A stretch of DNA of 64,000 bases from Psammoneis japonica (Eukaryota), in assembly GCA_008632985.1 (NCBI GenBank), contig QPGO01000156.1, positions 62,001-126,000 on the forward strand. The letters are read 5' to 3'. Below, in pieces: positions 1-24,728 of this stretch; positions within the stretch are counted from its first letter, which is position 1; every line of letters starts with the position of its first letter. The notes beneath the pieces were generated by a model. That model was not told the origin of the DNA, did not search any database, and saw nothing but the letters and a program-made list of their open reading frames with translations. Position numbers and translations under genes: made by a program.

Positions 1-3000
1 ATTTTGATGACATGGAACATTTTGCCAATGGTTTTGGAATGGAGTTGTTTGGTCCCAAGCTCAAAAGCACAATTTCAATGCTTGCATCCAAAAAGCAGTT
101 TTTGGAGACAACAAATTGGTCCCCCTCTCCAGAATTCCTTGTTCTTCCCTTCCTTTGTCACAAGCCAAAGTTGCGTTGCATTCCACATGTCACAGAAGTC
201 ATCCACACCAACAACATTGTCAGGAAAACTCTTGGATGCCCTGACATTTGGTCTTGCATCATGACCAGTGGTTGGTCCATGAAGAAATCCGACGTGCTGA
301 AAGGTGAATGTGTTCTTCAACATTAAAATTTGGAGGAAGCTCTCCATTTCTCCAAACTGCCCGGAGAGACAGCAAAAAAAGAGGATTGTCACGTGCAACT
401 TTGCTGCAAGATCAAAGCAATGGCAGAACTTGTTTGTGTGATCATCACCGGCGATGACCCAAATGATCCTGTCTCTGGCAAGCCTTGTTTCCATTTTTTT
501 ATGGTGCAAAAGTCTCCAAGAGATGATCAATGACCAAGCACATGACCTTCACGGTGCATGCGTTGTCATTGAAATTGTCATGTGTTGCATCGAGTGCAAA
601 TCAAAGGACATGGACTGTTGGTTCATGCAGATTTTTCACCGTGTCAATGCCCAAAAGGAGTGGCACATGTTCGTCAACAGCTTTCTTGTCACATGTGATT
701 CCAATGGTCCATGTTCCCAGGAGGATGAGATCAAGGGGTTCCTTAGAGACAAACTTGGTGACATTGAGAACTCTGTGACAATGGCAGGTGACTCCCTTGC
801 TCATTGGGAGGTGCACGAAGAAAAAATCAGTTCCATGTTGAATCATGAATTTGGGAAGGGCTGTCCTGTGAGGAGCAACCTGGCACATGACCCAGGCACA
901 GCAAGCAGCTCACAATGCTTCAGCTAAAATTCAGAAGCATTGGGAGGAGCATCACATGTTGAGTGTTAAGACAGAGGTTTGAAATTTTTGCAATGGCAGT
1001 TTTCCTCTGATGGCTGTTGCACAACACAATCACAAAATCTGCAAAGCAGTCACAACAACACATTGAGACAAGTGCAATGGCAAAAAGGAAGACAGCAAAG
1101 GACAGGATGATGGCAGAGGCATCACCAAACAGCCCCAGGCTAACAGCAGCATTGCAGCAGGTGGGTGCAGCAGGAGATCACCAATCTCTGAAGAGAGAGG
1201 TGGAAGAGGTGGCACGGAGAGAGCCATTCCCAAAAGAGCGAAGTTCTTTGTGAAGGCGGACATGGCAAGTGGTGGCAAGGTGTCAAGGCCAGTGCAGAAA
1301 AACACGGCCAATGGCAAGTTCAGCAAGCATGAATGGGCAGGGTCATGGGAGGACTGGGTGAAGAAATGTGTGCTCAATGCAGTCAATGCAAAAAAGAAAC
1401 ACCGTGTGTCAGACGATGATGAAGAGTGTGATGAGCGGCAAGTGCTGTGGGGTGCATTTCCAAAATGGGACTGGGTGTGGTGCTGCTGACAAGATTCTCA
1501 TTTTGCTGCAGTCATGATGACAGAAGAACAAGCCAAGGAAATCCGTGGGATGAAGAAATTGACAAAGAAAGCAAAAAGTGCAAAGAAGTGCAAAAAGCCC
1601 CCTGCGGACCATGAAGAACAGTTCCTGGCAACTTGGGAGGATGAGGCAGCAGACACCATTGTGTTTGAGAAGTGGACAAACAAGGAGGCACACACATGGC
1701 TCTACAACAACATTCTAAAATTCATGGAGAGCACTGCAATGTGGAGAAGGATGGTGGAGTCTGGCAGCACCAAGGCTGCAGATCCAGCTGTGGCAAGTGA
1801 TGAGGCACTGGCGCTGTTGATGTTGGAAAACTGCTGGAAGGTTTGGGAGCACAAGACCGTGCAGGAAAGAAAGGATGAAGGGAGCAAAGAGGAGGAGGGG
1901 GAAACAAAACCAGCGCCCTTGCACACAGACCTGATGCAACAGCATGACTCTTGGAATGACAAAGGAATGCAGCAATTCAATGCCCTGCTTGGGGAGGCAA
2001 AGGAGGACAGGGCAAGTGAGCCGGGTGTGCATTTCAACACATGGTGCAACAACAGAAAAAAAGGGAGAGCAAAGGTGAAGGAAAAAAGGGCAGAACCAAC
2101 AAAAAACCAGTGGAGATGGAGATGAGAACACAAACAACAACAGAACTTTATGGTGATGATGAGGAGGATGATGACAAATCAGACAAACCTGGTGGCAGGA
2201 AAGATGAGGAGGAAGACAAAGAGAGCAAAGAAAGCAGTGACGAAGGCAAACAAGGAACAACTCCAGTGCAGGCCAGTTTAAAATGCAATGTGGCTGACAC
2301 CACAGCATTGGCTTGGTGTTCATTGACAAAACATGTGAAAAAGCAAAAGCAACAGTTCAGCCCAAATTCATTGCACATGTCATGTCACATGTGAAAATCA
2401 ACATGTGATGTGAGACAAACAAGTGACATTGATTGTCAGCTTCCACAGTGAAGGAATGCATGCGCACAGGTTGCCAGCCACACAACTGACAAGGTTTGAA
2501 ACTGTGAAAACACCATCTGTAAAAGGAGTGAAAATCACTGTGAGAAAGGGGGTGTTTGTCACCACAATGCACGCTCTGATGGTTTCCTGCTGCTGCTGGT
2601 GTGATCATGAGATCTGACCCCCAACCCCCCCACCACACTGGTGGCACCACACACAAACATCAATGCCAAACAGCACCACATGGTGGCATGCCTCAAAAAC
2701 CTGCAATTTTTTGCTGGGGCTGGGCATGGCAATCAGTGGCAGGCTCTGGAATCTGGAATGTTGCGCTGCCAACAATCACACCCATGGCTGGCATCCAGAG
2801 TGACCAAGGGGGAGACATCACAAGGCTTTTGCCAATTCTGCATTTTCAACAGTGACTTGCCATTTGCAGAGCTGAAATGTGCAGCACTCAGTCTTTTGCA
2901 GCAAGGAGACACAAAGATGTGACATTGGATGGCACACAATTCTGTGTGTGAAGGCAGCAATTGGTCTTGTGGTGCTGCAGCTGCCACTTCTTGTGTTGCC

Positions 3001-4240
3001 ATTCTTGCAATGTGTTTTTGACACCAAACCAATGGCTGGCACAGAGAAAGTTTGGGCCAGAAAAGGACACCTGGGGCATGTGATGTGCTGTGAAAAAGGA
3101 CAACAGCACTCACAAATTGAAGAAGAGCAAGAAGAACAGCAGGCCAACAATGAAGTTGCTGGCTGGAGCAACACATTCATTGAATGAACTCTGGGACACT
3201 TGGCAATTTACAACAACCCACCCACCTGCATTGCTGATCCCATGGTCAAATCAAGAGCCAACAGCACAGATGGCATCACTGTCTGCATCCCCAACATCAA
3301 CACATGACCCTTGCTCCAACACCTGTTCTCCCAGTGCTGCTTGCTCTGTTGCACCTCCACGCCAACATGCCGTGGTGGTTGTGATCAGAGATGACAGTGC
3401 AGCACAGCTGGAGAGTCACATGTGACAGAAAATCAAGCCAGGACACAGTGGGAGCATGGTGTTAGAAGAGAGTTGGCAGAGGCATGGCATTTGGGAGAAA
3501 AATGGTGGGATTGGAGACATCAAGAGGGCAAGGAGTGCTGGGGCTTGGGGGGGGGAGGTGGAAAAGCAGATTGTCAATGGTTGGTGAAATGCCATGCATG
3601 GCACAGCAGAAGGAGTGGGTGAGAGAGATGAGGAGAGGGGATGGCTGTGTTGGGGATGGTGATGTTGTGGTGGCTGGCCCATGCTGTGTTTTGAGGGAGA
3701 CTGGCTGCTGGGAGGCTGAGGAGTTGGGCAGTGACAGTTGGGAGGAAAGGCAAAGGGGGCATCATTGTGAGACAGAGAGGAAGCATTGAGAGTGTCAAAT
3801 GATTGCATTTGAAGGGAGAGGCCCAATGGAAGAGATCTGGCAGGTTGTTGCAGGGGGTGGATGTTGAAGTGGCAACGGCAGCGAGGAGGTGAGTGTGTTG
3901 GCATGGCATCTGCGGAGGGAATGGTGGCACATTCGTGTTTGCGGGGAGCAAGAGGAGAGTGCTTTGAGTTTGCTTGTCAACGAGGGTGGTGAGGCAGTGG
4001 AGAGCTTGGTCAAAAGAGAGTCGAAGGTGGAGGTGGAGCGGGTGGCAGCCGAGCGTCCGTCAGCAATCTTGCTTGAAAGAATGGAGCGTGACGTCATCAA
4101 ATTCTGAAGCAAGCCAAGATCCGCGAAGTTCTTCGCACGCAAACTGCAAGGTGAAGTGCCAATGAAGTGGTTCGTGGTTCGCGGTTCGCGGGTGCGATGT
4201 TGGATGTTTCAGATGCGTTTCTGAAGGTCATTGTGTTGTT
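1..4240. mobile_element. Degenerate TE-derived block, TpA- and CpG-depleted; family unresolved
   Basis: About 13 TpA in ~4.2 kb by manual count; Cys/His-rich spurious ORFs in all frames; contains the accessory ORF at 1514-2125, related to the one at 19177-19515. Confidence 0.7.
1514..2125 (+). pseudogene. Relic of a DNA-transposon accessory ORF (SDEAxALLxLEN...W / WxxxGxxxFNxL...DR type)
   Basis: Motifs ASDEALALLMLENCWKVWE and SWNDKGMQQFNALLGEAKEDR align by eye with TVSLEAFALLVCLNCC and GWSKEWIKKHNELCKWVKKDQ at 19177-19515. Confidence 0.55.
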
Positions 4241-4259
4241 GTTTACATAATATTCCACC

Positions 4260-5111
4260 ATGGCGAAAGAAGTTGATTACACGAAGGTTGATGTTGAAGA
4301 TGATATCGAGCTTGCGGACGCTGCGATTCCGGAGGCGAAGCTGGTTGACAAGGATGGCATGTTGTTGCCCAAGTTGTCGCCCAAGTTCCAAGTCACTGCA
4401 CCCTGCGATCTCGAAGCGGGTTTTGAGTTTGCCGTGCCGTTTGATGACAAGCAATACCAAGTCACCGTTGTACGTGTACACTTTGTGTTCGTGAATAGTC
4501 GTCTTGCTATTTGCTCACTCAAGCTTTTTCTTGCAGCCGTCAGGAGGTGTGAGAGCTGGACAAACCTTCCAACCGGAGAACGTGCAAGAACTGAACAATA
4601 GAACTCGCCTTCCTCTAGCGGTGATTGGATGGCCGGGGTGTTTGATTGTTTCGACAGTCCCAACTGTTTTGGGGCATGTCTGTGTGGTATGTGTGTCCAG
4701 CCTCATTTGTTGGGCACCGTCATGAACCGCTTGCGTGGAGAGAGGGGATCGTCCGGTCTCTGTGCTCTCTTGTGCGCGGTTTTGGTGATTTCAAACCTAC
4801 TCATGAGGGTTGAAGACGATTCAATTGCGGCTTTGTTTGCACTTATCTTTCTGGGTGCCGTGTTTGTTCTTCACATGGCTTCGTGTCTGGCCCGTATGCA
4901 GTTGCGCCAACGCCTCGCGATTGAAGGAAGTGAAGTGGAAGATTGCTTTCTTTCGTGGTTTTGCAACTGCTGTGTGATTCTTCAGATGCATCGCCAAGTG
5001 GATCAAATGACGGCTGGACGGAACATGGTTGGAAAGGTCTCAAAGCGATTGGTTAAAAAGATTTCAGAGAAAGAAGAAGACCCCATTAAAGTTTCCACCA
5101 TTGATGTTTAA
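4260..5111 (+). CDS. PLAC8-family Cys-rich membrane protein
   Basis: W-x-x-GVFDCF...C-x-C...P and RMQLRQRLAIEGSEVEDC...FCNCCVILQMHRQ; GT-AG intron ~4470-4536; apparent frameshift near 4600. Confidence 0.8.
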
Positions 5112-5976
5112 GAAGGAATGATTGACTGACACGAGAAAATGCTTGTGGAATGAAAGGACACTCAGGCGTGACGAAGGTCCTTAGGCAGCGGCTCAGATAG
5201 AGTCGTGTATTTTATAGGATGAAGGAATGAAAGAAATGCAAGAGTAGTTGTCTTGCTTTCTCTAGCTACTTCTATTAGGTACCTACAGACTTACCGAGGC
5301 TTAAAGCGCGATGTGATAGGAACGGAGCATCCGAATCATGTAAAACACGGAGGCAAATTGGGAACGGAAGAACGTCGCTGACAACATAGTAGGAAGTCAA
5401 ACGATCTCGATTTGACGTCTTGCCGATGGATGATTCCTCTTGGCTTATTACGCAATTTCACAGAGTAGGCACTCATCAATTGAAGTCCCACGCCACTTGG
5501 CGTGCAAATAGGTGGCGACAGACACGATCGAGGGGAGATATGAGCAGATCATTCCCGTCGATAGGCTAGTCCCTTTTGCCATTTATTCACGAGAAAAGAC
5601 ATACCTACACTCACATTGACACCTTCGGCATGAGTGGCAATCTCCGCAAGCCTTTCTCGCATGAGCACAGCATGAAAGGGCGTCCCGTATCTTCAATGAA
5701 TATATGGCAAGACGCGTGAGGGTTGCCAACGCCGTATGGTCTTTCGCGAACCAACGGCTGAGGCATCCACATGACCTAATTTCCCTTCTCGTATACTCCC
5801 TCCAATACCTTTGGTGGTGATGGTGACAGACTAGGCCCTACTGTCAATCCCTTCGTATCGCACAAGGGTAAGAGATGTTGAGTCAAACTTCATATTACGC
5901 TAATAAGCTCCAAGGGAAGTCCTGGTACGGATGACTCGAAGCTCTCTAAAGTGAATGGTAACTGATACTCCCCTGA

Positions 5977-7265
5977 TCAGCTTGATTCGGCGTCAAGTTC
6001 CGCTTTTAGTTGCTCGTAAAGCTGGAGGACTTCTTCTCGATGATAGTCGTCCCACGGCGTTTCGTACAAGGCCGCACGATTCATGGTCTCTACGGCTCCC
6101 TTCAGATTTCCTTGAGCCTTTTGTGACAGAGCAAGATGCTTGTGGACCCAGGGAAAGTGCCGGTTTATCTGCAACCCAGCATCGGCATACGTAATCGACT
6201 TGCTGTACATACCTAGATGAAACATACACTTAGACAGGCCCATGATTACGGAGAGCTCTTGTCGAGGTGTCGAGCCCTCGAAAAACCCAGGCATTTCAAG
6301 AAGATTCAAGTAGAGTTGCGTGGCATCATCCCACTGCTCCATGTTCTCATACGCCCTTGCTTTCACGAGGAAAATGTTGATGTGCCGCATTGGACCTTCG
6401 CCCTTGAATCGAGATGGGGGAGCTTGCGATGTCATTTCCTCTTTCAGTTCGTCCAGCTCGCGTTCAGCTTCTAAATCGACCAAACCCATGTTTGTCGCTT
6501 GTTCTGCGCGCTCCAATAGCTCTGTAGCTCTGTTCAGTTTCGAGTGTCGCTCATTGTCAATCTCGATGACTTGATCAACAAGCTCAATGGATGATGAATA
6601 TTCTTTTAAATCCAAAAGGATTTCTGCCTTTGTAAACATAGCTTGAACGTGGGGCTGCGTCGTCCCGGCAAGAACCTTGTCTAGCTCTTGGAGAGCCTCT
6701 CGGCGAATGCCTTGAACCTCCTCGCTGTTGCGTTTCGTTTTCTTTCCAACTGAAGCGCCCTTCGGGCAAGCACCCCTGCTTTTTCAATAGCTGTCTTTTG
6801 TATGTCTTCAGCTCTAGACCGACACACGGGACAGGAAGTCGCGTCTGAACCCTGCTCGAACCCTGCTGCCACGCCTTGCTGCCATTCGTTGAGGCATGCA
6901 AAGCAAAACTGATGTCTACAGACTTTCAAAATAACTGGATTCTGAATTTCGGTAGTCAAGCAAATGGGACAATTGTCCGTGTTGGCGGGTGTCCTGTCTG
7001 CATATTCGTCCGGCTTCTCTACAACAAGCCCGCCCTCTTGCATCACGAGCGAACCAACACTACAATCCGGCTTGTGCTTACGCCAGTCCTTCTTCTGGCA
7101 GATCTGAGAGCAGTAGTAAACGCATTTGCACCGAGAGCATCGTTTCGACGGAGCCGCCTTGCTGCATTCTTTCAAGTCACATGTGATGCAATCCCGTGGA
7201 AGCTTGTCGATGCGCTCCTGGATTGGTAGCTCCATCTCGCTGGTTGCCTGTTCCTCCTCTGACAT
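5977..7265 (-). CDS. MYND zinc finger + RING finger + TPR-like protein
   Basis: CSRCKCVYYCSQICQKKDWRKHKPDC (MYND); CPIC...CRHQFCFAC...CPVC (RING); helical TPR-like C-terminus; two ORFs joined by a frameshift or intron near 6640-6720. Confidence 0.8.
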
Positions 7266-7473
7266 GACAATTGGTAGATTTATGGAAGTTGTCTGAACGA
7301 GGCCTCTCCTCCAATACTACTCTGCTACTATATACCGGTAGCAAACCACCAGAACGGATCTGGCAATCTGCAGCCTTCACACAACGCTCTGGTGTTCCTC
7401 ATTACTATGTTCGAAAATTGAATGAGAAGGATGAAGTCTCGCCAGACTTTTGATGTTTAGGCTGACGAGCTTC

Positions 7474-7657
7474 TGAATAAATGCTGATATACTGTCACGA
7501 ATATAGGCAGTCCATATGCCATTGGCGATTGGTCCACTGTCGCTTATTTAGTGGCCCCAGCAGCGTAACATCTCACAATTCCAGAACCTGTTGATGCTGT
7601 TCAACACTCTGTCTTGTCTTACACCCAATTCTTAGCTATCATGGTAGCATTTATTCA
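7474..7657 (+). repeat. 5' LTR
   Basis: TG...CA ends; 12-bp terminal inverted repeat TGAATAAATGCT/AGCATTTATTCA; ungapped match to 13985-14168 with 18 transitions. Confidence 0.95.
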
Positions 7658-7670
7658 CTTTATCAGAGCC
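7658..7670 (+). other. Primer-binding-site-like sequence (tRNA-iMet type)
   Basis: CTTTATCAGAGCC directly after the LTR resembles the canonical copia TGGTATCAGAGC. Confidence 0.6.
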
Positions 7671-8203
7671 AACACGCTGTGATGTTCATTGCCTGGAACG
7701 GGCATCGCGAACGGTGCGACGGTGTCGTTGCGGTCGATCGATTTTTGCGGCAAGCACCATGTTGGTCCCATGGTTGCTCGCGCAATCGCTGAGTCCTTTA
7801 CATGTGTCAACATTCATGGATGTGAACGACATGCTCTTGGAGACCAGAGCTGTGATCCGTCAGACATGACGTTGGCAGACGGAATGTTTGATCAGGTGGA
7901 TGGAATGTGTTGGCCAAGGCATGCAAACATTCGCGACAATGATGAAATGATGATTTATGTGTTCAGGTCTGTCATTTGATCACATGCATTTCATTAATCT
8001 AAAAACGTTGTCAAATTGTTCAGACACTGTGCATGTTGATGCATGTCTGTTGGACATTGTTGCTTGGGAGTGACACCGCCTGCTCGCGGGTTCGCCAAGC
8101 AGAAACCGCCAAATCGGCACGAGAACCACACATTTTTCTCACTTTCCTCCACTCACACAAGTGGATGCTCACGCGTCGAAACGCGAACAACTGCTGATGC
8201 ACC

Positions 8204-11200
8204 ATGGCCGCTGCCGCAGCCTTTGCCGCCTGTCTCACGCGTTGTGGACACAATGCGCAGACGCGCGCCCACACAGCCCGCCAAGGCTTTGCTGCCATCG
8301 AGGACCTGGAACAGGTCCCTTTGATGGAAATTGCCGATGTGACTGAGGGCATCATGAAGAGCGTTGACACCACCGCCAACCCCCAAGTCCGCTTTCCACA
8401 CCTGGCGAATCGCAAGCTCAAGGCACTGCGCGCATGGATTGACCACCGCAGAGCCCAGAACCAAGAGCCGACCGCTGCTCTCTTCGCTGGCGACGTCATT
8501 GGAACATGGGCGGCACGTCTTGTGGAACCAGAGCAATTCAAGTCCGCGGACTCAGACGACAAATCGGCTGCCAAAACGGCCGTGGAGCTCAAGAACCCAC
8601 ATGACTGGCCTGCCTTCCAAGAGCCACTGGAGACCGAACTGCGTCACCACCGCAGTGCCGTTGCCGGAGTGCCCCCCATCTAACCAGTTGGGGAACATGA
8701 AGAGGTCACCGCCAAGATGTTGGCTGCCACCTGCACCACCATTGACGAGGACCTCATTGCCACTGCCCGCCTTGCAGGAGCTCAGTGTGCGCAGGACAGG
8801 CAACGCCTGCATGATCTCTTGAAGAAGCCAGTGATGGGGGGGCCTGGATGGGCTTTTGTCAAACCTTCCAATCGCAGTCGCGATGGTCACACTGCTTTCT
8901 TTGCACTCAAGAGGCAGGCAGAAGGATCGGCTGCCGCCACTGCCCGAAAGAACCGTGCTTGTGCACAGATTGCTGCTGCGAAGTGCACCGGATGGGGTCG
9001 ATTTACCTTTGACCAGTGCATTCAGCATCATCAAAAGGCTCACAACGACTTGTCTGAGCTTGATGAACTGGTGGCCGAGACCAAGAAGGTCTCTGACTTT
9101 CTGAAGGGCATCTCCGATCCCAGGTTGGAAACTGGCAAGAGCGCAGTGGATGGAGACCCGACGAAGCTAGCAGATTTCGAGGCATGCCAGCAGTGCATGA
9201 AAACTCTGGTCGAAAATGCCAAGAACCACAATGCTGACACTCGCGGGATCGCATCCATCCAATGCCGCAACAACCAGCGCAACAACCCTGGTGGAAAGCA
9301 CCAACCTAAGAAGGACAAGCCAGGATCCGGGCAGGCCATTGTCCCATTGAAGAGTGGAGTGCTCTTGACGGTCCCGAATGAGAGCAAGTCCAAAAGCTCC
9401 GCGATGCCAAGAAAGCTGAAAAGAAATGCAAAGCTGCTGCTGCATCCTCGGAGGCTGAGTCGGTCAATGCGAAACTCGCGCTGTCAAGAAAGCAGCTGTT
9501 GCCGAGCCTGCTTCTCAACCTGCTGATGAACCGAAAGACTCCGAAGAGCCTGACAAACCTGCCGCCAATGCAGGTGCCCAGTTCGGATGCAGTGCACATG
9601 AGAAACCTCAGAAAGAGGAATGAACAGTTGCGCCAGCACCAAAAGGCATGGAACCGAATGTCGCCAAACCTGCTGGCACCATTTGTTTGTCTGGGCGATT
9701 CTCAAAGGATGCACACATCTCTTTGTCATCTGCTGGGAATTCAGATGATGAAGCCACCACTGATTTGGACTCGCACGCTAACACGTGTGCTGTTGGGTCC
9801 AATTTTGTGATGCACTCTGACATCGACAGAACTGTCGTGGTACACCCTCACTCCGAAGAGCACGCACCAATGGAAAACATTCCCATTTGCACGGCTGCCA
9901 CCGTGTGGGTTGATCCAACTGATGGACAACCACACCCACCACCAGTCCACGAGGCTGTGTTTTTCGGGGACAAGATGACCAACACCCTCCCATGCCCCAA
10001 CCAACTGCGAGCGAATGGGCTGATTGTCCATGATGCCCCTCGCCAGTTTGATCCAACTGGCACACACTCCATCTCTTTTCCTGACTCGAAGATCAGGGTG
10101 CCATTGCGAATGCGAGGTGTTGCTTCAGTCTTTGATTCACACAAGCGACAAAGGAGGATCTGGAGAACCTCCCCCGGCTGGAACTGGCATCACCCCTGAG
10201 ATGGGAGCCTTCTGCTGATGCCCTGGCGCAAAAGGAGGAAGTGCGTGCATGTGCCAGTGTGCGCCAAGGATCAGCAAAGTCGGACGGACGGTCGACGATG
10301 ATGAATGCGACCAGGTGTGTCACTTCCATTCATTCATGCCAAACATCCTGTCATGACGAGAATGTCATCATGGATGCCAATGACGACGATTCTTTGTATC
10401 ACCGCCTGGTTGCTCAGGCAAATGTCTCCCACAACGACACTGAGGGAGACGGGCCACATGACCGGCATGACCCAGATATCCACCCAGATTGTGCCAAGTG
10501 GAAACGGGTGTGTGCACTGTCGACCTCGAGTCGTGCATCGACCATCACGCCCGAGACACTCTCTAAAAGGTGGAACATTGGCCTGACGGCCGCTAAGAAC
10601 ACCCTCAGAGTGACGACCCAGGCAGGGGTCCGTAATGTCCACACACCATCCGAACGGAAAGTCCGGAAGAAAGCCCCTTGGCTTGAGTTCCCTGCTGTCA
10701 AGGGACGCTTCTACTCCGACCAGATGTTTTCGAAGGTCAAATCGACACATGGTGAGACAGGAGGAAGCGCACTTGCCAACGGAAGAGGGTGTGACAGGTT
10801 CCATCCTTGGAAGAGGAAACAGGACCACCCGGATGCCGTCATGTCATTCACACATGACGTTGGCGCACCGCAGGTCCTTGTGTTGGATGGCGCACCAGAA
10901 ATGGCGGAAGGCCAGACCAAAGAGATCTGCAAGGAATGCAGGACACATCAGGAGGTGTCCACCCCGCACAGCCCCTGGCAGAACCCAGCCGAGGCATCCA
11001 TTCGTGAGTTGAAGAAAAGAGTCCGTGTGACTCTATGCTGGACTGGCGCTCACAGGCGACTTTGGTCCTACAGCACCAAATGGACATGTGACATCCGACG
11101 CATGATTGCGACTAGCATGTCGGACATGGGAGGACGAGTCCCAGAAGAGGAGGTGACAGGTTCGACACCCGACATCTCTTCCCTCTCTCTCTTTGATTGG

Positions 11201-13833
11201 CATCAACCTGTTTGTTGCTGCGTGCCTGTGGCGGAGTTCCCACACAAAAAGAAGTGCACAGGCCGTTGGCTCGGAGTAGCTGACAACTGCACTGACGACA
11301 TGGCATTCATCATTTTGCCCGAATCGGACAAACCCATCATTCGGAAGGATGCATGGGCTGTGCCGGAGGATGACCTTAAAACTCCAGCAATCCAGATGGA
11401 TCTTGCATCGGTCGATCAAGCTTTGATCGAACGGCTTAGCATCCCGGAAAAGGATGCCAGTGCTGACTTCCCTGAACTCCCTGACGACTTCATGGACGAA
11501 TGGGACGATGCCGTTGAACCCGTGGAACCCAATGCTTCCAAACCGGAAGCTGATGAGTGTGCCCCGGAAGGGCCAGATGAGCATCTCACAGCTCAAGTCA
11601 TGTTGCCACGAGGAGGCGAGCTGACTCATGCTAGGGTCATTGCACGCAAGCGAGGTGGCGACGGGGTTCCTGTTGGTGCTAGGAACGACAACCCTGTCCT
11701 AGACTCAAGGACATATGACGTGGAATTCCCTGATGGATCCACTGATTCCCACACTGCTGACGTCATTGCAGAGAACCTGTTCGCTCAGATCGACTCTGAA
11801 GGGAATGCCTGCCAGATCATGAAGGAGACAGTCGATCACCGACGTGATGCCCGTGCCGCAACGGCCGATGACGGGTGCATGACGACTGAGACTGGCAGGC
11901 GTGCTCCTAGGAGGACGACTGCAGGCTGGGACCTGCAAGTCAAATGGAAGGATGGGACTGCATCCTGGGTTCCTCTCAAGGATTTGAAGGAGTCCAATCC
12001 AGTCGAGGTTGCTGAGTGCGCTGCAGCGAACAAAGCAGCCAGTGAACCAGCCTTCAACTGGTGGGTCCGAGACGTCTTGCGTCGCAGATCAAGGATCCTG
12101 AAGAAAGTCAAGTCACGTCACTGGAAACGCACGCATGAGTTCGGAATTGAACTCCCAAAATCTGTCAAGGAAGCCATGGAAATAGATGACAGAATGGGGA
12201 CCGACTTCTGGTTCAAGGCCATTGAGAAGGAAATGCGCAACGTCATGCCTGCGCTCGAATTCCGCGATGACGACACTGTGCCGGTCGGGCACAAACATGT
12301 TGATTGTCACATGATTTTTGACATCAAGAGCACCCTCCAACGTAAAGCGAGGTTCGTGGCCGGAGGCCATCAAACCGATCCACCCAAGGAATCGACCCAT
12401 TCCAGCGTGGTGTCGCATGACAGCGTTGGGACAGCATTCACCACACAGCAGCTCTGAATGACCTGGAGGTCCTGAGCGCTGATGTTCAGAATGCCTGCTT
12501 GAATGCACACACTGAGGAAAAGTGTTGCACCACTGCTGGCCTGGAACTTGGGAAGCAGAGCAAGGGAAGGCTGGTGATCATTGTCCGTGCCTTGCATGGT
12601 CTCAAGTCTTCAGGTGCAAGATTTAGGGAACATGTGGCAGCTGCTCTGCGGGATGCTGGGTTCGAGTCTTGCAAGGCTGACCCGGATGTCTGGATGCAGG
12701 CTGCGGTTAAGCCGGATGGCTTCAAGTGCTGGGAACATGTGCTTGTCTATGTGGACGACTTGTTGTGCGTCTCCCATGATCCTCAGAAGGTCATGGATTG
12801 CATGAGCTCTGGGTGCACGCTCAAGGACGGAAGTGTCTGCGAACTGGAAGAGTGCTCAGGCGCCCAGATCAGAAAGTGCCAGCTGTCTGACTCGGACAGC
12901 AAGACACGCTGGGCTGTGTCCTCTGACCTTTGTGTCAAAAGGGCATCAGCTGACGTTGAATTAGAGCTTAAGAAAACTGATGGGCGTCTTCCGACGAAGG
13001 CGTCGACGCCCTTGAGCTTGGGATGCAGGCCTGAACTGGACGGTTCACCTGAGTTGAACGCCAAAACGGCTGACTGCCATCAAGGCCTCATTGGTGTGCT
13101 GTGGTGGGCAGTTGAACTGGGGTGAGTGGACATTTTTGTCGCTGTCTTGCTCATGTCCTCCTGCTTGGCAGCACCACGAGTTGGACACCTGGACGAGGTG
13201 CTCCATGTCTTTGCATGCTTGAAGGCTCGCTCTGTGTCTGCGCCAGTGTTCGACGACACTGAGCCCGTCTTTGACGAGAGTCACTTTGCCAAGTGTGATT
13301 GGGAAGAATGTCACCCTGGCGCGGCTGAACCAATGCCACCGAACATGCCAGAGGCACGCGGGAATGGCGTGGCTGCTGCTTGCTTTGTCGATGCTGATCA
13401 TGCCGGATGCCGTGTGACGCGCAGGTCCCACACTGGGATCCTGACATTTGTCCAACGAGCGCCCATCTTGCATTGCTCTAAGCAGCAGAATGCCGTAGAG
13501 TCCTCTGCTTTTGGGTCGGAGTTCGTGGCTATGAAGACTGCAGTGGAGCAAATCAAAGCCTTGCGTTGCAAGCTTCGGATGCTCGGAATCCCCATGGATG
13601 GGGCCACTGACGTTTTCTGTGACAATGAAGCTGTCTTCAAGAACTCAACTAAACCAGAGTCCACTTTGAAGAAGAAGCATAATGCAATTGCCTGTCACAG
13701 GACTCGTGAGGCACAAGCCGCTGGAACAGTGTGCATTGCTTGGGAAGATGGATGCACGAATCTAGCGGACGTGCTAACTGAGTTGTTGCCTGGACCGAAG
13801 CTCCGGGAAATCACAAGTCACATCCTGTGGTGA
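8204..13833 (+). pseudogene. Copia gag-pol polyprotein, disrupted
   Basis: Protease DLDSHANTCAVG; integrase PHSPWQNPAE; RT KARFVAGGH, ALHGLKSSGA, YVDDLL; RNase H DADHAG...RRSHTG, FCDN; stops or frameshifts at ~8681, ~10145, ~12445 and 13123 (CGA>TGA). Confidence 0.92.
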
Positions 13834-13971
13834 GTCCCAAAAGGGGACAAACCGAACAGGTTTGCCACGCAGGTGCGGCTTTTCCCACCCCCAAAACAAA
13901 AGCACCACCCTGGAACAGGGCAGCATCAGGTTGCACTTGTCTGTCGATCTGGCCCGAGCGGAGCCAGTGTC

Positions 13972-13984
13972 AGTTCAAGGGGAC
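13972..13984 (+). other. Polypurine tract
   Basis: AGTTCAAGGGGAC immediately before the 3' LTR. Confidence 0.65.
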
Positions 13985-14168
13985 TGAACAAATGCTGACA
14001 TGCTGTCACGAATGTAGGCAGTTCATGTGCTGTTGGCGATTGGTCCACTGTCGCTTGTTCAGTGGCCCCAGCAGCACAACATCTCACAATTCTAGAACCT
14101 GTTGATGCTGTTCAACACTCTGTCTTGTCTTGCACCCAATTCTCAGCTGTCATGGCAGCATTTGTTCA
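13985..14168 (+). repeat. 3' LTR
   Basis: Same length as the 5' LTR; TGAACAAATGCT...AGCATTTGTTCA. Confidence 0.95.
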
Positions 14169-15724
14169 CTTCAGAAATCAGCGGTTTCCTGCCTGTGTGC
14201 CTGCCTGCCATGCCGTGCCGTGCATCTGCCATGCCATGCAACCACAGGCTCAGTTGCAATGCAACAGCAGTTTGCAGAGCCATGACCTGCCACGGTGTGT
14301 GGCAGTTGCCATCTGCCATCTTTTCATGGCTGACATGAGAGGGAGACCTGAGCATCATCAATGCGCAGCAGCAGTGCTGTGCTTGATTTTCCTCATTCAA
14401 GGAGGCTGAAGGAGAGACTGAGCTCCTGAGACGTCACTGGCGCACACAACATTTCCTGGCTGGGAAAATGAGTGTCCTGCAACCCACCACACCTGGTGGC
14501 TGCCCAAGTTGTGGTCATTGCTTCAGTGGATGACAGGCACTGGGGCAGAAACACATGGCAGAAAAATGGCCAAAAAGCCACCTTGGTGGTTGTGTTCTGC
14601 ATTTTCTGAGTTGGACCCTGCCAAGCTGAGAGCACAGCATAAAAAAATGAGTTGTCACACACATGTGGACAAACTTTTTTTCACATTTAGCAGTGTTCTG
14701 TGGCATGTGTTTTGTTCAAGTTGGGTGGCAAGAAAGGAGAATGAGCTGAAAAAAGGTTGATGATCTTCCAGAGATGAAGTTTGCAAACATGGCCAAAGGG
14801 CAACAGAGCCGCCATCCTCTCTTTGGCACTCTGACCAACCTGGTGGAGACATTGTTGACTTCATGCCATCAGACAACTGCACAGAGGTTGAGTTGTGAAG
14901 AGCCAGCTTCTTCGTTGACATTGTGGTGGGTCTGAATGTGTGGCCCACACAGCCCGCATTTGCCAATGTCATGGCAACTCTTGGAGGACTGCTTGCTTGC
15001 AGGCAAGGAGTTGAGGCTTTGCCACACTGTTTGAGAGGGATTTTTTGACAAGTTTGCTGCTGACAAAGCCAAGTGCTGTGGTGGGTGTGTCAATTTCCAC
15101 GTGAAACTGATGGAAGGGCTTGATGTGCAGCATCCAAATGCTGTGAAAGTCACCAGTGGCAAGGCCACCTCTGCCAACTTGCACCAGTCAAGTGGCCAGC
15201 TCAAAACTCAGCCAATCATCACATCAATGTTTTGAAATGGGAGCTGCACAATCAAAAAATTGTTTCCCTGTCATGTTTGCAAAATGTTGGTTGCACAAGG
15301 CTGCAGCAGCAGAGCATCAAAACAACTGCAAAAACTGGGACATGTTTCTGCATGTCTGGGTGGACATCCTGGCAACATTGTGAACATGATGGCACTCAAG
15401 AATGTTCATGCCAGGAAAGAGATCCTGACTGCCAGAGCCTTCCCATGTTTTGCCACCATGGTGGTTGTGTCATGACAGAAAAAAATGTCTTTGTCCCCAC
15501 TGGAGATTCTTTCTCTTTACCTGAAAAACAACAATTTTTCTCATTCACCACATGGCAGCCCCGTGCAATGTTGGCAGCCTTCAGAGGCTCTGCGGCTGCA
15601 CATCCAGCACTTGGTGCATTCCTCACAGCATCATGACAGCCCCACAGAGTGCTTGATGTGCAGCATTGGCCTCTCACAAGGCTCTCAAATCTGCCAGCTG
15701 GTCTGTGCTGCACCGCCACATGTC

Positions 15725-18700
15725 CATCTGGGACACCAACAATCTGGGTGTTGCACCTGCCATCAAGAATTTTTGAATTGCAGCCAGGCAACTTCTCTGT
15801 TTAATCCAAGATTGTGCTGATTTGTCAAATCTACATTTGTGAAATGTTCAAGAACAAACATCTTCATTCCCAAAGTCAATGAATTTCTCTCCACTGCATG
15901 GAAAAAACTGCGGTGCAGTTTGTGCTCATGTTGAGTCCTGAATGAAGTGCAACCCACTTTCCCCAATTCAAAACTCTGCAGTCATGTGTGAGGTTAGATT
16001 CGTCTTTGCTTCAATTTTTTGGCTCCCTGTCCATGCCATTCTTTGTTTTTGTGCAATGCCCCCCATGTTGCTCTTCTTCATTTGCCCCCAGCTTGCAACC
16101 CTGCTTTTCACCATGTGATTGCTGTGCCACGTGATTGATGTTTGCCTTCAATGCATTCCTTCCATCACATTGTCATCTTGACATTTCTCCAACATGCTTC
16201 ATTGATGCAGTCTGATGGTCTTGTTTGTCCCTGGTGCAAATGTTCTGGGTTCAGTTCCAAGCATGATCTTAGTCAGAGCACATTGCTGCCCCAACTGTCT
16301 CCTTTTCATTGGTCTGACCAAGTCTTTCAGTTGTCTGTTGTGGACATTGTGGTTTTGACTCAGAAAACCAGGTGCAGTGTCTCCTTTCCCATCACTGCAC
16401 CACTTCCACTGTTCTCCCTTTGCCAAGAACATGGCAGCATTCAAGAACTGAAACATCCTCCCTGTCTGGTCAGACATTGTTGGTTTCTTTGCTTGCTTCC
16501 TTGGGATGCTGACTCTGTTGCCTCTCTTGGGTCCAATGCCAATGGACCAAAATGTCCCCATTGCCAAGTTCCCTTTTTCAACATTGCCCCGCACATCCAG
16601 AATTGTGCACCCTGCTGCGAGAAGAAGGAAGCATCCCTTTGATGCTCTGCTGCTGCTTCAAATGCTGTCAATTCATTTTTCCCTCCAGATGATGACACAT
16701 TTGGTGACAATGATGATGACTCCATGTTTGGTTTTGCTGATGACAAACCCCAGCCCCTCCCTGCCTAAAGTCCATTTGAACCCAGATCCACCTCCTCCTG
16801 CACACTCTGACAATGCTTCTCCTGTCAGCTCCCCCGTGTGCACCCACCCTGTCAAATGCTCTGGTTGCTTGCATGCCGCTGCCAATGCAGCCACTGTGAT
16901 TGATCACCGATTTGTCTCATTTGCCAATGATGGTGTGTCTGCCCTCAGAGAGGACAGTTCTGTGGATGTTTCCAAGACCATTGCAGCTGATTCTCGATGG
17001 CACTTTGGGCCCTCCCTTGATGTCATGTCCAGCAGAAGACACAGCGCTGCTCCTCTCCTGTCTGTGTTGACTCAGCTGCAGTTTCCTCATTTGATCCCAA
17101 AACTTCACTGGGGCTGGCATGCAACCTGCCCCTGATGAGAACTTTGATGTCCCTCCAGTCCACTCACCCAGCACTGTGCTCATAATTTGGCTGCTGCCTC
17201 TCTGTCTTTGGTCAGGTGTTGCAATTGACTTGATCAACAAAGTTGTGAGAATGGCCCATGAAGAGCATGCAGAGAAAAGATTGGATTTGCCACAAAACAT
17301 CACATCAAGTGCAATCACAATGGTTTCCCACAGACACTTGTTTGTCAACATCTCCTCCAGGCAATTCTGTGTTGTGTTGTTGATGAATGGCATCCATCCA
17401 TTGCAGCTGTTAAAAAAAATCTTTGTGTCAACTTCATGACAGCACAAACTGCGCACTGCATCATTTTTGTCAAGAAAGGACCTGTTGGTCAAAGTGGGGT
17501 GCCTTTCTGCTGTGTTGGGAAAAATGCCAGTGCACCACACACCACCCAGCTGGTGCCAAGGACAATGCAGCTCACAGCACTGTGGGCCTGACAGGTGGGA
17601 AAAAGCAGACAACAAGCAATCACCAAACCAGCACAACCACCACCAGCATCAATGAAACTGAAAATGCTGTTGGACCAACTGCCCAACATGCAGGGATGGG
17701 TGGCCCAAAACCTTGGCACCAAAGTCAAAATTCACTGTCTCTCCATGTGATTCAGCACCGCCACCAGCAACACAACCAAATTGATGCTCGATCTCAGGCA
17801 TGTGATGATGGCAGCAGAGGGAACATGCACTCCAGTGATTGTGGCAGTTCAATGCAACCAGCACATCCACTCAACACCCATGTCAATTTCAACAACATGA
17901 TGGGAAACAGATTGTGTGTGAGTTCATGGTGAAGCGGGCTGGTGAATTGTGTGTGAACACACATCATTTGGATTTGTGATGATTCCATTTGGGCAAGAAC
18001 AGTGAGACAGCAGTTGGAGATGCAAGCATTGCATTTTATGGGATGAATGAGATTGTGGTGCATTGGCAGCAGAGGAGGGCATCAGAAATGAGGAGGAAAC
18101 AACCAACTTGGTTGTCAACAAAATTTTACAAGAAAAGTTGCAGAATTTGCTTAAATCAATGCAGAGCACACACTGGCACATGTGAATGGCTTGCATTGGA
18201 GCACAATTTCAAAACAGTGAAAGGTTTTGAAAATTTCAAATGTCAAGTTAGAAATGTGCTCACAAATCTGACACAGAGACCTGTTTGAATGAATCTGGGA
18301 AAAGTGAGCAATTGCAAAACAGAGAAAATCACTTGCAAAGTGCACTCATTTCATGACTTCTCATGTCACAAACTAGACGGAACACAGAAAACAGTGCAAC
18401 ACAAGAGCTGCCTGTTGGAACAGGAAAAAAGATGGAGAAGACAGTTGCCACAGGAGTGACAATGCAAGATGGTGGGAGCATGATAATGTCATGTGGCACA
18501 AGTTGGGTTGAAGAGGGCAGGACAAAGAATGACAGTTGCACCAAACAAGTTGCAGCCGGCCATTTTGGCATGCTTTGCAGTTGCCATGAGTCCTGTGGCA
18601 GTGGGATTGCTCAATGCACAAACAAACGAGTGCAGGGAATTAAGCCAATTCCAGTTTGCAGGCAGGGACTCAAGTTCTGTTGTGACACCTGCGGAGGGAT

Positions 18701-20131
18701 GTCATGCAATGGATCAAGCTCCAGCAGTTGAGAGAAATTGGCAGGGTCCATGTTGATGAAGGTGGTCAATGAAAGTGTGCAGCCACATCACAAGTTCACA
18801 AACTTTGACAGAGAACTTGCAGTGGGAGGAGAGCACATGAAAATGGTTCTGCAGGAGTCAGGAGCATGGCATCTGCACCAGATGCATTCTCCGATGCATG
18901 CAAAGATGCAATCAGAAAAAACCTCAACCACAAAAGGAACAATGCACAGGACAACACAAGGAGGAGGATGACAGGTGAGCAACACAGTGCAGGCATTCAG
19001 CAGTTGTAGATGGGATTGTCTGACGGCCAAGTGTGAACTCCATTGTTTTCATCAATGCAGTTGCTGCTTTAGAGGGGTTCTTGCTGGATGAGTGTGAAGA
19101 CTTGAACAAGGGCAGGGGTGACAAAGACATGTGCACGTGGTTCTTGGAAATGGTGGTGCCAACTGTGGTGGGCTGAGTGCAGTTTGGCAGCAGAAGCACA
19201 ACCAATTTGCTGCAAGAGTGGCTCACTGTGTCATTGGAGGCCTTTGCTCTGCTGGTGTGCTTAAACTGCTGTGACAAGGTGGCTGACATGGCAGAAAAAT
19301 TGGAGAAGGATGACAACATTGCAAGGCACAGAAAGCTGATGGTGGAAGATGCTGCATCTGCAAAGTGCACGGTGATGGCAAAGGGGGAATCAGCTGAGAG
19401 GAACCAAGGATGGAGCAAGGAGTGGATCAAGAAGCACAATGAACTGTGCAAGTGGGTGAAGAAAGACCAAGAGGAGAATGAAGGATTTGGTGCATGGTTC
19501 AAGGAATGGAGGTGAGAGAAGGTGAACTTGTCCAAGGATGCAGAAAAGAAACACAAGAGAGAGAGAGAGAGGAGAAAAGGCAGGAGAGAGAGGATGGATG
19601 GGCCACGCCAATTGGAGAGGACCTGCCCTTGCAGCCAGTGGCTGCTGGCAATGACACAGAAGCAATTGCGTCCATGTGGCAAAAAACCAAACTGGTGCGT
19701 GAATGTAAATTGCAGCAAACAACAAAATCCAGAACACAGCAAAAACAAAGAGGCAAACTGCAAGGCAATTGTTGGTCAAGAAAAAATGGCAGTTGCAACA
19801 TTTGCTTTTAAAACAAGAACAGTGCAAAGAGACAAAATGCACAAGGATGTTGCAGGCAAAGATGGTGGATCACATGTGGCAAGAGTTGTGATGAAGGAAT
19901 GAGGAACAGCAAATGTCAGAAAGGGTTGAGATTAAAATTGTGGGCAGGAACATTCACACTTCAAAGTGGGGCACAAATTCAAATCAAGAAGCTCACAAAC
20001 TCAATTGGTTCTGAATGCACTGACATTGCAAGGAAGACTTGGCTCTCAAGCTCACAACATTCTGGGATTGCAGTCGAGAAACACCCAGATTTTGACAGGT
20101 GGTCAGACCCAGATTGTTGGTGTCCCAGATG
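15725..20131 (+). mobile_element. Degenerate TIR DNA transposon (~4.4 kb), possibly CMC/EnSpm-Plavaka-like
   Basis: 25-bp perfect inverted repeats CATCTGGGACACCAACAATCTGGGT at 15725-15749 and 20107-20131; TC on both outer sides (possible 2-bp TSD); CPWC zinc-finger-like remnant near 16230; accessory ORF at 19177-19515. Superfamily is inferred. Confidence 0.65.
19177..19515 (+). pseudogene. Transposon accessory ORF remnant, related to 1514-2125
   Basis: TVSLEAFALLVCLN...KCT...GWSKEWIKKHNELCKWVKKD. Confidence 0.55.
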
Positions 20132-20199
20132 TCCATCAAGAAGACTTCAACAAAGTGAACCACAGATGCTCTCAAATTCAAAAGGCATGTTGATGCAAG

Positions 20200-23100
20200 G
20201 CAAACAATGGTGGTGACAGCAACATCATTGTCAACATTTGATGACAGCACAGTTTTTGCCAGCATCTGGCAGCCTTGAGGCCAGCATTTGACTTGAAAAA
20301 CATTGTTGTTGTGTGCAGTGCACTTGCACATCCATTGGAGGCTGTGGCCCACAGCTCTGCTGCCAAACCCACTGTGTGAGCCAGCAGTTGGATGCAATTG
20401 ATGATGTTTTGTCCAGTGCATATGGCACATTGTGGAGAAGGGGGGGGGGGGGGGGGGCACTCCAATTGACAACATTGCAGCCAGCAAATGGAAGCTTGTT
20501 GCGGAGCCACCAACATCCAGCCAGCTGCAATGCCACCAACCACTTGGCACATTGTGTTTTTGAGTGACATTCTCTGGGCACCTGAGCAGAGGCAAGGAGC
20601 TGGCATTTGCTTGTGATTGAACCTTCAACTTCTGCTTTGCTTGCAGACATCAAGAAATGGCTGACAATGCCTGGCTTGTTCACTCCCACCAGTCTCTTCA
20701 GCATTGAGTTGTGGGCAAACCAGCTCATTGCCAGCTTTGGATGGTCCCTTGCTGAGCATGCCCAAAGTCAGCAGTCTCCAGCCTGGGCAGATCAGGCAGC
20801 AGACAGGTTCAAAAGCCATCTGACTGCAACAAGTTGACACCAAGCAGTGTCTCTGAGGAGCCATTGGTTGTCCCAGCTTTTCTGAAGGTTTCAAGGCTGC
20901 AGAGTTTCAGAGTTTCTTGGTTTGGGTGGTGAATGGCATGGAGGCAAGGGTTGCTGCACAGCCTTGATCCACTTGCCAAACTCTGTGATGCTGTGCATGG
21001 CTGCTTGGTGCAAAAATTTCATGCCCAGGTTCTCAAGTTTCTTGGTGGTCACAAACCTGAGCATCATTGATGTTGTGTGCCCATGTGTCAACACAGGTGT
21101 CCAGAGTTGCCAGGGGCACCAGCTGAGCTTCAGCCCTGCAAAGCCCTTCTTTTAGACAGACTGGGGTGAAGAAAGCTTTGTCAATGTCAGGGGCAGTGGC
21201 AGAGACTCAGGAGCAATGACACAGCTGCTGCTGCTGGTGGTGGCAGATCTTGAGCCACAGGTGCAGCTCAGTGGTCATTGGTTGTTTCAAAATGAACATC
21301 AGGTGCAGGAGGGTTGAAGGCAGTCCAGACATGATTGCTCATGCCTGTTCCATGTCTTTTGACCAGCCAAGGAACAGGGTCCAGGATGCAGACTGGACAA
21401 CATTCCCACTCTGGTGTGCACACATCACAAAAGCAATTCTGGGCAAGGCTGACCCAACAACAATGTCCACATGGGGGAATGCCCTTCCTTGCACACTTGG
21501 TGTCATCTCAAAAAAGTGAGTGCAAGGCATGAGGAAACACCACCACAGGCAACAGGCATGTGCGCCAACATCACTCTTGCCATGTTGGAGACCAAATTGA
21601 TGCTGTGTTCAGCTGCCCCATTCTGATGGTGAGCATTTGTGCCACAGAACTGGCTGGAAGCATTGCTCTTGTTGTCATGCTGTGTGTTCTTGCACAGCAG
21701 CTCTGGCCTTGAAAGTGCCACCATCCACCACACAAAAAATTGTGAGACAATGCTGTGGTCAAGCAGATGTTTCCCAAACATGCGTGTTTGGCTCTGATGG
21801 CTTCCACAGCCAAACACCAAGTTGGCACCCAATGTGGAGACACCCAGAGGCATGTCCCACAAAAAACCTCATTTGATCTGCTGGGTGGGGAGCTTTGCTT
21901 CAGGAGTTGTGGGCACACCTGAGAAGATGGGCTCAAAGCTGACAGCCTGACCAGAGCAGAGATGGTTGGCTTTCAGAGCTCCACCTTGCTCAGGGGCTGT
22001 GGAGTGCCAGGCAGAGCTGAGGGAACAGAGATGGCCTTTTGCATGCTCGCCTGCACATTGAATTTGGGTGGCAGGAAGGAGTCAGCACAGATCAAGCCTT
22101 GGATGAATGCAAGTGCAGATGATGACCAAAACACAAGTGTGCCACTCCAAAACAAGCTTTTTCCCAGTGGCAAGGTTTTGATTGTTTTTGTTGAGTGCTG
22201 CAGGATTTCAACTTGGAAAGTGGGCTCAACACCATGTGAGATGGCATCAGCAACCATGCTTGCTGTGCACAACATGCTCCCCCCCCCCCCAACCAAACAG
22301 CAGCTGGGGTGTTGGGAGATGTTTCCCAGCTTTGTTGGGAATGTGGTGTGTGCACAGCTTTGACAACAAGCATGAAGCCTCCTGTTGGTGCATTGTGGAA
22401 CACTCAGGAGTTTGGGGGGTTCCCAGACCAGCAACAGCCAAGCCATTTGTCATGCCACCAAGCTTGAGGGGCTTTTCAAGGACCATTGCTGCAGGTCCTG
22501 TGAAGTCACCCACATGTCACCAGCAAAAACTGGCAAGGCTCCAGTGTTGCATGTGACCACAAGGCAGTCATGTGCAAGACTCAACAAGCTTTGAAGGTCA
22601 GCAGCAAAGATGCTCAAGTGGGTGTTGCCAAACAGTGCCTGTGCAGAGGCGAGGCTTGGATGCACAGCAGTCACATCTGCAGCCTCTTGAAGGGGCTTTT
22701 CAGGATCTTGCCAGGTGGCAGGAGTGTGTCAACAAAGTCAAGGTTGACAGACAACTCATTGAAACAAAAACAGTCTGGTGGCACTGTCTCTTTGATGAAC
22801 TCAAAGCAGCAGTTTGGACTTGCTTGCAAGGCAATGACAGACCAGTGGCAAGTCTTTTCTGAATTACAGGCATGTTGGTCAAGAAGTTAAAATCTTCAAG
22901 AATGGCTGAGCTGCAACGACATGCATGCTGACAGCATTCAGCATCCCAGGGTGGCCAGAGCTTCTCACTGAGGCAGTGGTGGTCAGGATTGTGCAGCAAG
23001 CACTTGTTGCCCTTGACCTTGTTGCACCATGCAAACTGCCACAATCTGGCTCAATCATGTCATCCAACTGTTCCACAGTCAAGAAGACTTGGGAGCTTGC

Positions 23101-24450: not shown

Positions 24451-24728
24451 AGCTCTGTGCAGTTCAGGGTCGCTGTCACAACTCCACAAAACGGACACAA
24501 AACAGATTCATTTTAGTTGCCCAAAATGAGATCATGAGATGCGATTTGCTGGGGTCTTTTTAAAATAAAATGGCTCAATGGACTGCCGAAAACATGCACT
24601 GCATTGGCCTTTTACGCATTTGTGTGCTCCATCCACACAAAACTGCACACCACAACTCTTGTCAGCAATCCACAACCAAACCACCATGTGTTGTCACAAC
24701 CCAACAACGAGTTTTCAGCCACCATGCA

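Follow-up and report, generated by a model that had tools for sequence, protein, structure and literature searches.

A 64,000-nucleotide stretch of the genome of Psammoneis japonica (GenBank assembly GCA_008632985.1, contig QPGO01000156.1, positions 62,001 to 126,000 of the forward strand), analysed over its full length and hereafter called the window, carries at 7474–14168 a dead Ty1/copia retrotransposon of the diatom (CoDi-like) type that is strongly depleted in the dinucleotide 5'-TA-3' (TpA). As judged from sequence comparison, TA is the ancestral state and CA or TG the derived one, the reverse of the repeat-induced point mutation (RIP) of fungi, and the process kills the element by removing Tyr codons. 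The depletion is regional and covers the element body, its 3' long terminal repeat (LTR) and two old tracts, one on either side. We lean, with reserve, towards hypermutation of TpA within the chromosome, which would have acted on silenced transposon DNA over many cycles and alongside a slower decay of CpG.

The change is recorded in the two LTRs, 184 bp each, at 7474–7657 (5' LTR) and 13985–14168 (3' LTR), both on the plus strand. A repeat search returned one direct repeat pair at 90% identity (7473–7660 versus 13984–14171), and the limits were set by the terminal inverted repeats, a perfect 10-bp pair in the 5' LTR (TGAATAAATG and CATTTATTCA) as in the 3' LTR (TGAACAAATG and CATTTGTTCA), both LTRs having the TG...CA ends expected of Ty1/copia. 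Aligned without gaps, the copies differ at 18 of 184 bp, by transitions throughout. The 5' LTR is close to the unmutated state and holds 14 TpA, of which six read CA, seven read TG and one is unchanged in the TA-poor 3' LTR, where only two TpA are found. Among the other differences, position 7582 runs in the opposite direction (CA in the 5' LTR, TA in the 3' LTR), a CA at 7520/7521 of the 5' LTR faces a TG, a CG at 7565 faces a CA, and a C faces a T at 7512, outside contexts of the TpA or CpG type; at most two TpA losses (7582 and 7520/21) can be assigned to the 5' LTR itself. Thirteen of the 18 differences sit in the 28 TpA positions (binomial p = 7e-8), versus a single change among the 80 A/T outside TpA, and the nine ApA are identical between copies. 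All these counts reproduce those of a preliminary description of this DNA, which had also set the absence of ApA change against the WA signature of polymerase eta; that enzyme is ruled out by the same nine ApA. The description rightly held, too, that dating by LTR divergence would overestimate the age of the element. Indeed, the divergence is 9.8% over all sites, but once TpA and CpG are set aside 3 of 146 sites differ, and two of these three make up the single CA/TG site; since no more than these differ, the LTRs form a young pair.

The LTR pair alone gives no direction, and the CA-to-TA polarity of position 7582 would suit a RIP-like C-to-T change at CpA that made the TpA of the 5' LTR, the TA-poor 3' LTR then being the original. 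This case, which the preliminary description had set against its own proposal, is hardly credible in the light of the proteins. In the pol region (9750–13833, plus strand), 26 alignment columns have Tyr (TAY) in at least 70% of 28 homologs. The window copy retains Tyr in three of them, while 14 have changed to Cys (TGY) and nine to His (CAY), a loss in 23 of 26 columns, versus 0–2 such changes in 28–30 columns for eight control homologs treated in the same way. None of the columns became Arg (CGY), so that a TpA site is hit once and is immune thereafter, as expected if intact TpA is what is recognised. Over 577 conserved pol columns there are 101 mismatches; with codons sorted by hand, about 51 fit TpA loss and about nine further ones fit CpG decay (Arg to His, Gln, Trp or Cys; Pro to Leu; Thr to Met). 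Four of four Ile-to-Thr codons read ACA and two of two Val-to-Ala codons GCA, while a T precedes five of six Thr-to-Ala changes and every Asn-to-Asp, Lys-to-Glu, Ile-to-Val, Met-to-Val and Arg-to-Gly change.

The same polarity is seen beyond these columns. Among 120 RNase H homologs (maximum identity 73%), eight conserved Tyr columns comprise 831 cells, of which 758 hold Y and only 11 hold H or C, and the RNase H of the window has C, H, C, C and C at the five that it covers. An unrelated open reading frame (ORF) at 1490–2122 has H, C, H and H where its homologs keep Tyr (in AYxW, ENYW, WxYK and PxYT), and a Tyr content of 0.5% versus 1.4–5.0% in 22 homologs. At the nucleotide level, other copies of the element, found as loose contig ends in run X1 (the contigs of one sample), have TGTCAGAGCC after the LTR, and thus TGTCAGA where relatives from metagenomes have a conserved TATCAGA, which follows the 5' LTR in L002, L008 and L018. 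The LTRs of such relatives (L002, L008, L010, L018, L021) are TA-rich like the 5' LTR, with 13–18 TpA in 120–176 bp. Moreover, CA and TG each reach about 110–117 per kb in the old depleted tracts, approximately twice the expectation, and are ordinary in the genes. The Tyr codons, the second protein family, TATCAGA and the LTRs of relatives together decide for TpA loss over a gain of TpA in the 5' LTR.

Several structural features identify the element. It is flanked by a 4-bp target-site duplication, CTTC at 7470–7473 and again at 14169–14172, for which the probability of a chance match is 1/256; a 5-bp reading fails. After the 5' LTR comes a primer-binding-site-like motif, TATCAGAGCC (7661–7670, plus strand), which may match initiator tRNA-Met and which contains the last TpA kept before the depleted body. 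The internal region (7662–13984, plus strand) ends in a polypurine tract, AAGGGGAC (13977–13984, plus strand), directly before the 3' LTR, and the junction of GAGGGGAC with a following TG is common to the relatives L018 and L008. A 4-bp duplication, TTCC, is also reported for the diatom copia element Blackbeard (PMC2806351). Within pol, integrase lies upstream of an RVT_2-type reverse transcriptase and RNase H, which is the copia order. Its ORF pieces (10136–12457, 12421–13125 and 13126–13833) are colinear with polyproteins of 1,350–1,430 residues, and a tblastn comparison was colinear with P0004, P0012 and P0039, covering residues 1–1370 of P0004. We found 49 full-length pol homologs, 33–55% identical to the first piece and all with PF07727; fragments that match the RNase H part carry the names of the diatoms Fragilaria crotonensis, Epithemia clementina and Attheya as their sources, and the likeliest host is accordingly a diatom or something closely related. 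The coding capacity is not intact, as there are one frameshift (near 12421–12457) and one in-frame stop (13123–13125) besides the replaced Tyr. The only Pfam match on pol is RVT_2 at 23.6 bits, under the cut-off of 31.6, and this low score is itself a sign of damage.

Densities along the window delimit the depleted region. The element body has 6.5 TpA and 52.8 CpG per kb, so that its CpG is largely kept, and the 3' LTR has 10.9 and 16.4, respectively. Next to it, an older tract (14173–24470) contains nearly no TpA or CpG (3.3 and 4.4 per kb over 14442–24470) and has CA and TG at about 117 per kb each, apart from its first 269 bp (14173–14441), which hold no TpA and retain 22.4 CpG per kb. It gives way to an edge zone (24471–25560) with a low TpA density (12.9 per kb) and a CpG density near normal (40.4 per kb), and then to genes (25600–64000) with 39.5 TpA and 57.8 CpG per kb. 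On the other side, a second old tract (1–3875), which includes the decayed ORF 1490–2122, is likewise free of both (3.4 TpA and 8.3 CpG per kb). The 5' LTR stands apart with 76.5 TpA and 21.9 CpG per kb, and 79 metagenomic relatives average 49.5 TpA per kb (range 30–98). Approximately 88% of TpA is thus gone from the young element together with little CpG, whereas the old tracts are depleted in both. Because the young element lost its TpA and kept its CpG, TpA loss must be much faster than CpG decay. The GC content of the element body is 0.55 versus a mean of 0.48 in relatives. Such tracts have a characteristic signature, with a TpA ratio near 0.05 and CpA and TpG ratios near 2. Their stop codons are affected as well: TAA and TAG together amount to 5–9 per kb in the old tracts versus about 34 (six frames), and since TA-free DNA keeps only TGA to limit ORFs, long spurious ORFs arise on both strands.

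The two types of product are balanced. The ratio of TG-type to CA-type changes is 7 : 6 in the LTR and 14 : 9 at Tyr codons, 21 : 15 when pooled (p = 0.4), and the types are randomly interleaved (runs of 8 versus 7.5 expected and 14 versus 12.0 expected). The strand symmetry put forward in the preliminary description is therefore upheld. As a single round would leave each daughter with the changes of one strand, a mixture of both strands requires several rounds, and this need for several rounds fits chromosomal DNA rather than a single cycle of reverse transcription. Regarding sequence context, YTAR accounts for 53 of 89 surviving TpA in depleted DNA versus 272 of 1,644 TpA in normal DNA (p = 1e-18), which means that TpA in YTAR outlasts other TpA about 8-fold. 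RTAY is nearly extinct, with five left versus 488 in twice as much normal DNA. The strict TpA specificity first described hence stands as far as other A/T are concerned, and has to be qualified for the CpG decay that proceeds alongside and for these flanking bases. At all seven informative sites of the LTR the changed A precedes a pyrimidine, a hint that the flanking base influences the choice of strand.

When did these changes arise? Placing them after insertion, as the preliminary description did, is our best reading of a single LTR pair. It is favoured by the inverted ends, the CTTC duplication and LTR-specific changes on both strands, and it is weakened by the number of pairs and by a possible gene conversion of the 5' LTR. 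That the two LTRs belong to one insertion and not to two, which that reading presupposes, is borne out by the perfect 10-bp inverted ends and by CTTC on either side. Changes that are specific to one LTR and fall on both strands are not those of editing at the RNA stage or on a single complementary DNA (cDNA) strand, and the balance and interleaving of TG and CA types confirm the earlier argument against ADAR-type RNA editing and single-strand cDNA editing. In addition, the 269 bp at 14173–14441, with their intermediate CpG density, allow for normal DNA that was mutated together with the element; mutation of this segment after the insertion, if true, would be evidence of action in the chromosome. 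To the left lies a host RING/MYND-finger gene (6681–7316, minus strand) with normal TpA, which starts some 210 bp away from the 5' LTR. An active host promoter at a distance of about 200 bp may be the reason why the 5' LTR and the primer-binding site escaped.

A different history, in which the element was mutated before or during integration (by RNA or cDNA editing, or in an already mutated source) and its 5' LTR and primer-binding site were later converted or recombined, is unlikely in our view. It would explain why the part left unmutated coincides exactly with U3-R-U5 and the primer-binding site; a conversion tract entering from the edge of the element would leave a sharp border and an intact duplication; the family is highly repeated in X1, which means that donors exist; and the TpA preference matches that of RNA adenosine deaminases. 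The pattern of change speaks against it, as an enzyme editing RNA or a single strand of cDNA would hit one strand, whereas here the TG and CA types occur equally and are interleaved, and as edits made at the RNA stage in U3, R or U5 would show in both LTRs. Furthermore, the signature is shared by the low-depth TA-free right flank, by the edge zone 24471–25560 and by the unrelated ORF family. Editing confined to plus-strand strong-stop DNA was considered separately and rejected, since it fits the spared segment and fails on the two-strand pattern.

Several observations weigh against mutation in the chromosome. First, only one LTR pair is available (n = 1). Second, the sparing of the 5' end is abrupt: TpA is kept up to 7661 and next occurs at 7799 (P = 0.004 for none in 7663–7798 at gene density), TpA shows no gradient within the 5' LTR, and what was spared is precisely the LTR with the primer-binding site, the same appearance that gene conversion by an unmutated copy would give. 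Third, the left flank keeps a normal TpA density as far as 7458, about 15 bp from the junction, and the right flank is without TpA, so that one insertion within about 15 bp of a border between normal and TA-free DNA would be a coincidence, unless 14173–14441 was mutated afterwards. Fourth, the strand rule suggested by the LTR fails at Tyr codons, where a hand count gives seven Cys to four His after a pyrimidine and seven Cys to five His after a purine, and tetranucleotide counts likewise do not support it. Fifth, the evidence for a spread of TpA loss into host genes is divided at the PLAC8 gene beside the left tract, which is TpA-low (ratio 0.25–0.29) but, compared with its single homolog, keeps two of five Tyr and has one His. 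Lastly, none of the 79 relatives is TA-depleted, in a search that required an intact Tyr motif and was thus biased against mutated copies.

Contigs of run X1, which contains 58% of the sampled words, bear on the reliability of the assembly. An artefact is very improbable, whether through modified bases that were miscalled or through a chimera in which the 5' LTR of one copy was assembled with the body of another. The junction does lie within a high-copy repeat, no contig among the X1 contigs listed bridges 7657–7662, and X1 may be the source sample. Yet X1 contigs with a word depth of 50–60 cover both outer junctions, at 7167–7502 (two other letters) and 14144–14600 (4 of 457), and reproduce the TA-free flank, which is accordingly not peculiar to the assembly; differing at two and four letters, they are not copies of it. 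Nor would errors replace Tyr by Cys or His so coherently, at 88% of sites and in two families of proteins. The summed X1 depth over the element is 3,000–12,000 versus 60–190 in the flanks, a depth that is not a copy number, and variation among the family copies in X1 consists of transitions at 1,058 of 1,165 places. At 7240–7400, X1 also has another, divergent form of the left flank that carries many substitutions and several indels, of similar depth and ending near 7394, which may be the other haplotype, possibly without the insertion.

The 79 metagenomic relatives show 44–73% protein identity and none is of the same family; an exact 33-nt LTR core had no match in metagenome contigs, and viral contigs gave one weak locus. 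No TA asymmetry appears in the 23 relatives with terminal repeats, where the largest gap is 46 versus 39. One relative, L042, has over 1–16053 a direct repeat of 9,039 bp (99.96% identical, offset 7,014 bp), which is a tandem array of a related copia element sharing LTRs.

If hypermutation did take place in the chromosome, it can be pictured as follows. The element lies where a transposon graveyard of 18 kb borders on normal DNA, and nearly every 5'-TA-3' in the graveyard, the element body and the 3' LTR has become CA or TG by an A:T-to-G:C transition on either strand, a changed site being no longer TpA and hence immune. The process would have run through many cell cycles, acting on both strands equally, fastest at RTAY and slowest at YTAR, and far faster than CpG decay. 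Its aim would probably be silenced transposon DNA. As for the chemistry, adenine would most likely be deaminated enzymatically to hypoxanthine in TpA context and read as G, which fits the preference of TadA/ADAT and ADAR deaminases for a 5' U/T neighbour; a change of T on the opposite strand would fit equally well. Given mutation in the chromosome, we regard a dedicated adenine deaminase as evenly poised between true and false.

A full defence system, a 'reverse RIP' in which a nuclear DNA adenine deaminase or a T-directed enzyme would be guided to silenced transposon chromatin, is a more tentative proposal that we consider possible and rather doubtful. Such a system would remove Tyr codons, TATA-like and primer-binding motifs and TAA/TAG stops, at hundreds of times the background mutation and ahead of CpG decay. 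Slightly less probable than mutation before integration is a by-product of silent chromatin that serves no defence, in which 5-hydroxymethyluracil (5hmU) or oxidised T at TpA, or an error-prone or biased repair, would raise the rate at which T is read as C in all DNA that is kept silent. To our knowledge, neither 5hmU nor its enzymes are known in diatoms, which counts against this explanation, as do the loss of about 88% of TpA versus 1–3 of 146 other LTR sites and a border that is sharp and not graded. In its favour, the loss of TpA goes together with that of CpG, which marks methylated transposon DNA, and an altered A on one strand is indistinguishable from an altered T on its partner; moreover, 5hmU is reported to silence transposons in dinoflagellates (PMC11572971).

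Both old tracts were also surveyed for traces of their origin. Their 85 ORFs had no credible Pfam match, the two matches obtained having E near 0.008, and none of the ORFs of at least 90 amino acids in 14173–24470 had one. A self-comparison of the old tracts in a purine/pyrimidine alphabet gave at best 217 bits versus 241 for a reversed-sequence decoy. ORF 1490–2122 (plus strand) has 101 homologs (lowest E, 5e-27), with which it forms an unnamed family that has the core motif SDEALxLLxxENYWxVW; no Pfam family was found in the homologs tested, and its product may come from an undescribed mobile element. At 1000–4000 and 16000–20000 the old tracts have a strong purine/pyrimidine strand skew (maxima of +0.32 for GC and +0.33 for AT, with negative values at 16–17 kb) that looks like the remains of coding strands. 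The 370 bp upstream of the PLAC8 gene (3876–4244) contain about 25 CpG and no TpA. In the edge zone, a frameshifted MYND-finger-like remnant (25290–25460, plus strand) was recognised by eye from C..C...C..C..FCCS..C...W..HK..C, Pfam finding nothing in the ORFs; Cys stands in it at the place usually taken by Tyr in MYND fingers.

The rest of the window, from 25.6 to 64 kb, is dense in host genes, including those for a helicase-associated-domain protein, PMSR, Spo11/TopoVI-A, an RF-1 domain protein and ricin-B-lectin proteins. Four tandem genes of about 1.65 kb with ricin-B-lectin domains lie at 54400–60500, with repeat units (families D1, D2, D4 and D7) that are 61–81% identical. A tandem duplication of 176–177 bp (43891–44243, 93% identical) is located inside a long ORF with ERCC4 and EME1/MUS81 C-terminal domains. 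No tRNA genes were found within the window.

Were the TpA loss confirmed as a process acting in the chromosome, it would represent a second chemical route by which point mutations kill transposons, outside fungi and with a polarity opposite to that of RIP, and, as a 'reverse RIP', the first natural, heritable and targeted A:T-to-G:C hypermutation of chromosomal DNA. In open-licence papers and bioRxiv preprints, we found no description of TpA-to-CpA/TpG hypermutation of transposons, in diatoms or elsewhere. An enzyme activity on nuclear DNA, from A to G at TpA or from T to C, would be implied; we know of no such activity as a natural genome defence, and engineered adenine base editors had to be evolved to act on DNA adenine. 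In practice, LTR-divergence dates would be inflated in such elements, and the TpA/CpA/TpG ratio signature could mark tracts of this kind in genome-wide surveys.

Among known systems, RIP of Neurospora and other fungi resembles the pattern in target and consequence: transitions crowd into chromosomal DNA of transposons or repeats and nowhere else, strike one dinucleotide on both strands, inactivate the element and leave a dinucleotide signature that can be used for detection. RIP is triggered by sequence duplication and depends on a RID-type methyltransferase. However, RIP turns CpA/TpG into TpA and lowers GC, whereas TpA becomes CpA/TpG here and GC rises; C-to-T changes at CpA or other CpN that raise TpA are not what is observed, cytosine deamination cannot produce the pattern, and the host is diatom-like and not a fungus. 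The slow decay of CpG by deamination of 5-methylcytosine affects the same tracts and yields the same products, CA and TG, but it is a separate and much slower process, as the young element shows by its CpG density close to that of the genes. In E. coli, very-short-patch repair (T:G to C:G, depleting CTAG) similarly replaces TA words by CA/TG; it is nevertheless a slow, genome-wide bias at one tetranucleotide, whereas saturation is regional here and the CTAG type (YTAR) survives best.

Two further comparisons concern enzymes that edit retroelement sequences. APOBEC3 also kills retroelement copies by clustered, context-specific transitions, but it causes plus-strand G-to-A changes through deamination of C in minus-strand cDNA before integration; A-to-G and T-to-C dominate here in place of one-strand G-to-A or C-to-T. 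The likeness to A-to-I editing of the ADAR or ADAT2/ADAT3 type, as in the mRNA editing of fungi or in the action of TadA on tRNA, is found in the A-to-G outcome and in the 5' U/T preference, with 13 of 14 TpA and none of nine ApA changed. Those enzymes, however, act on RNA, and their edits, once fixed by retrotransposition, would occupy one strand and both LTRs; A-to-G changes here are not limited to the transcribed strand (21 TG to 15 CA), the LTRs differ at 13 sites where the same edits would be shared, and flanks that do not belong to the element are affected. ADAR, moreover, prefers a 3' G, whereas a 3' pyrimidine is preferred at the TpA sites of this element.

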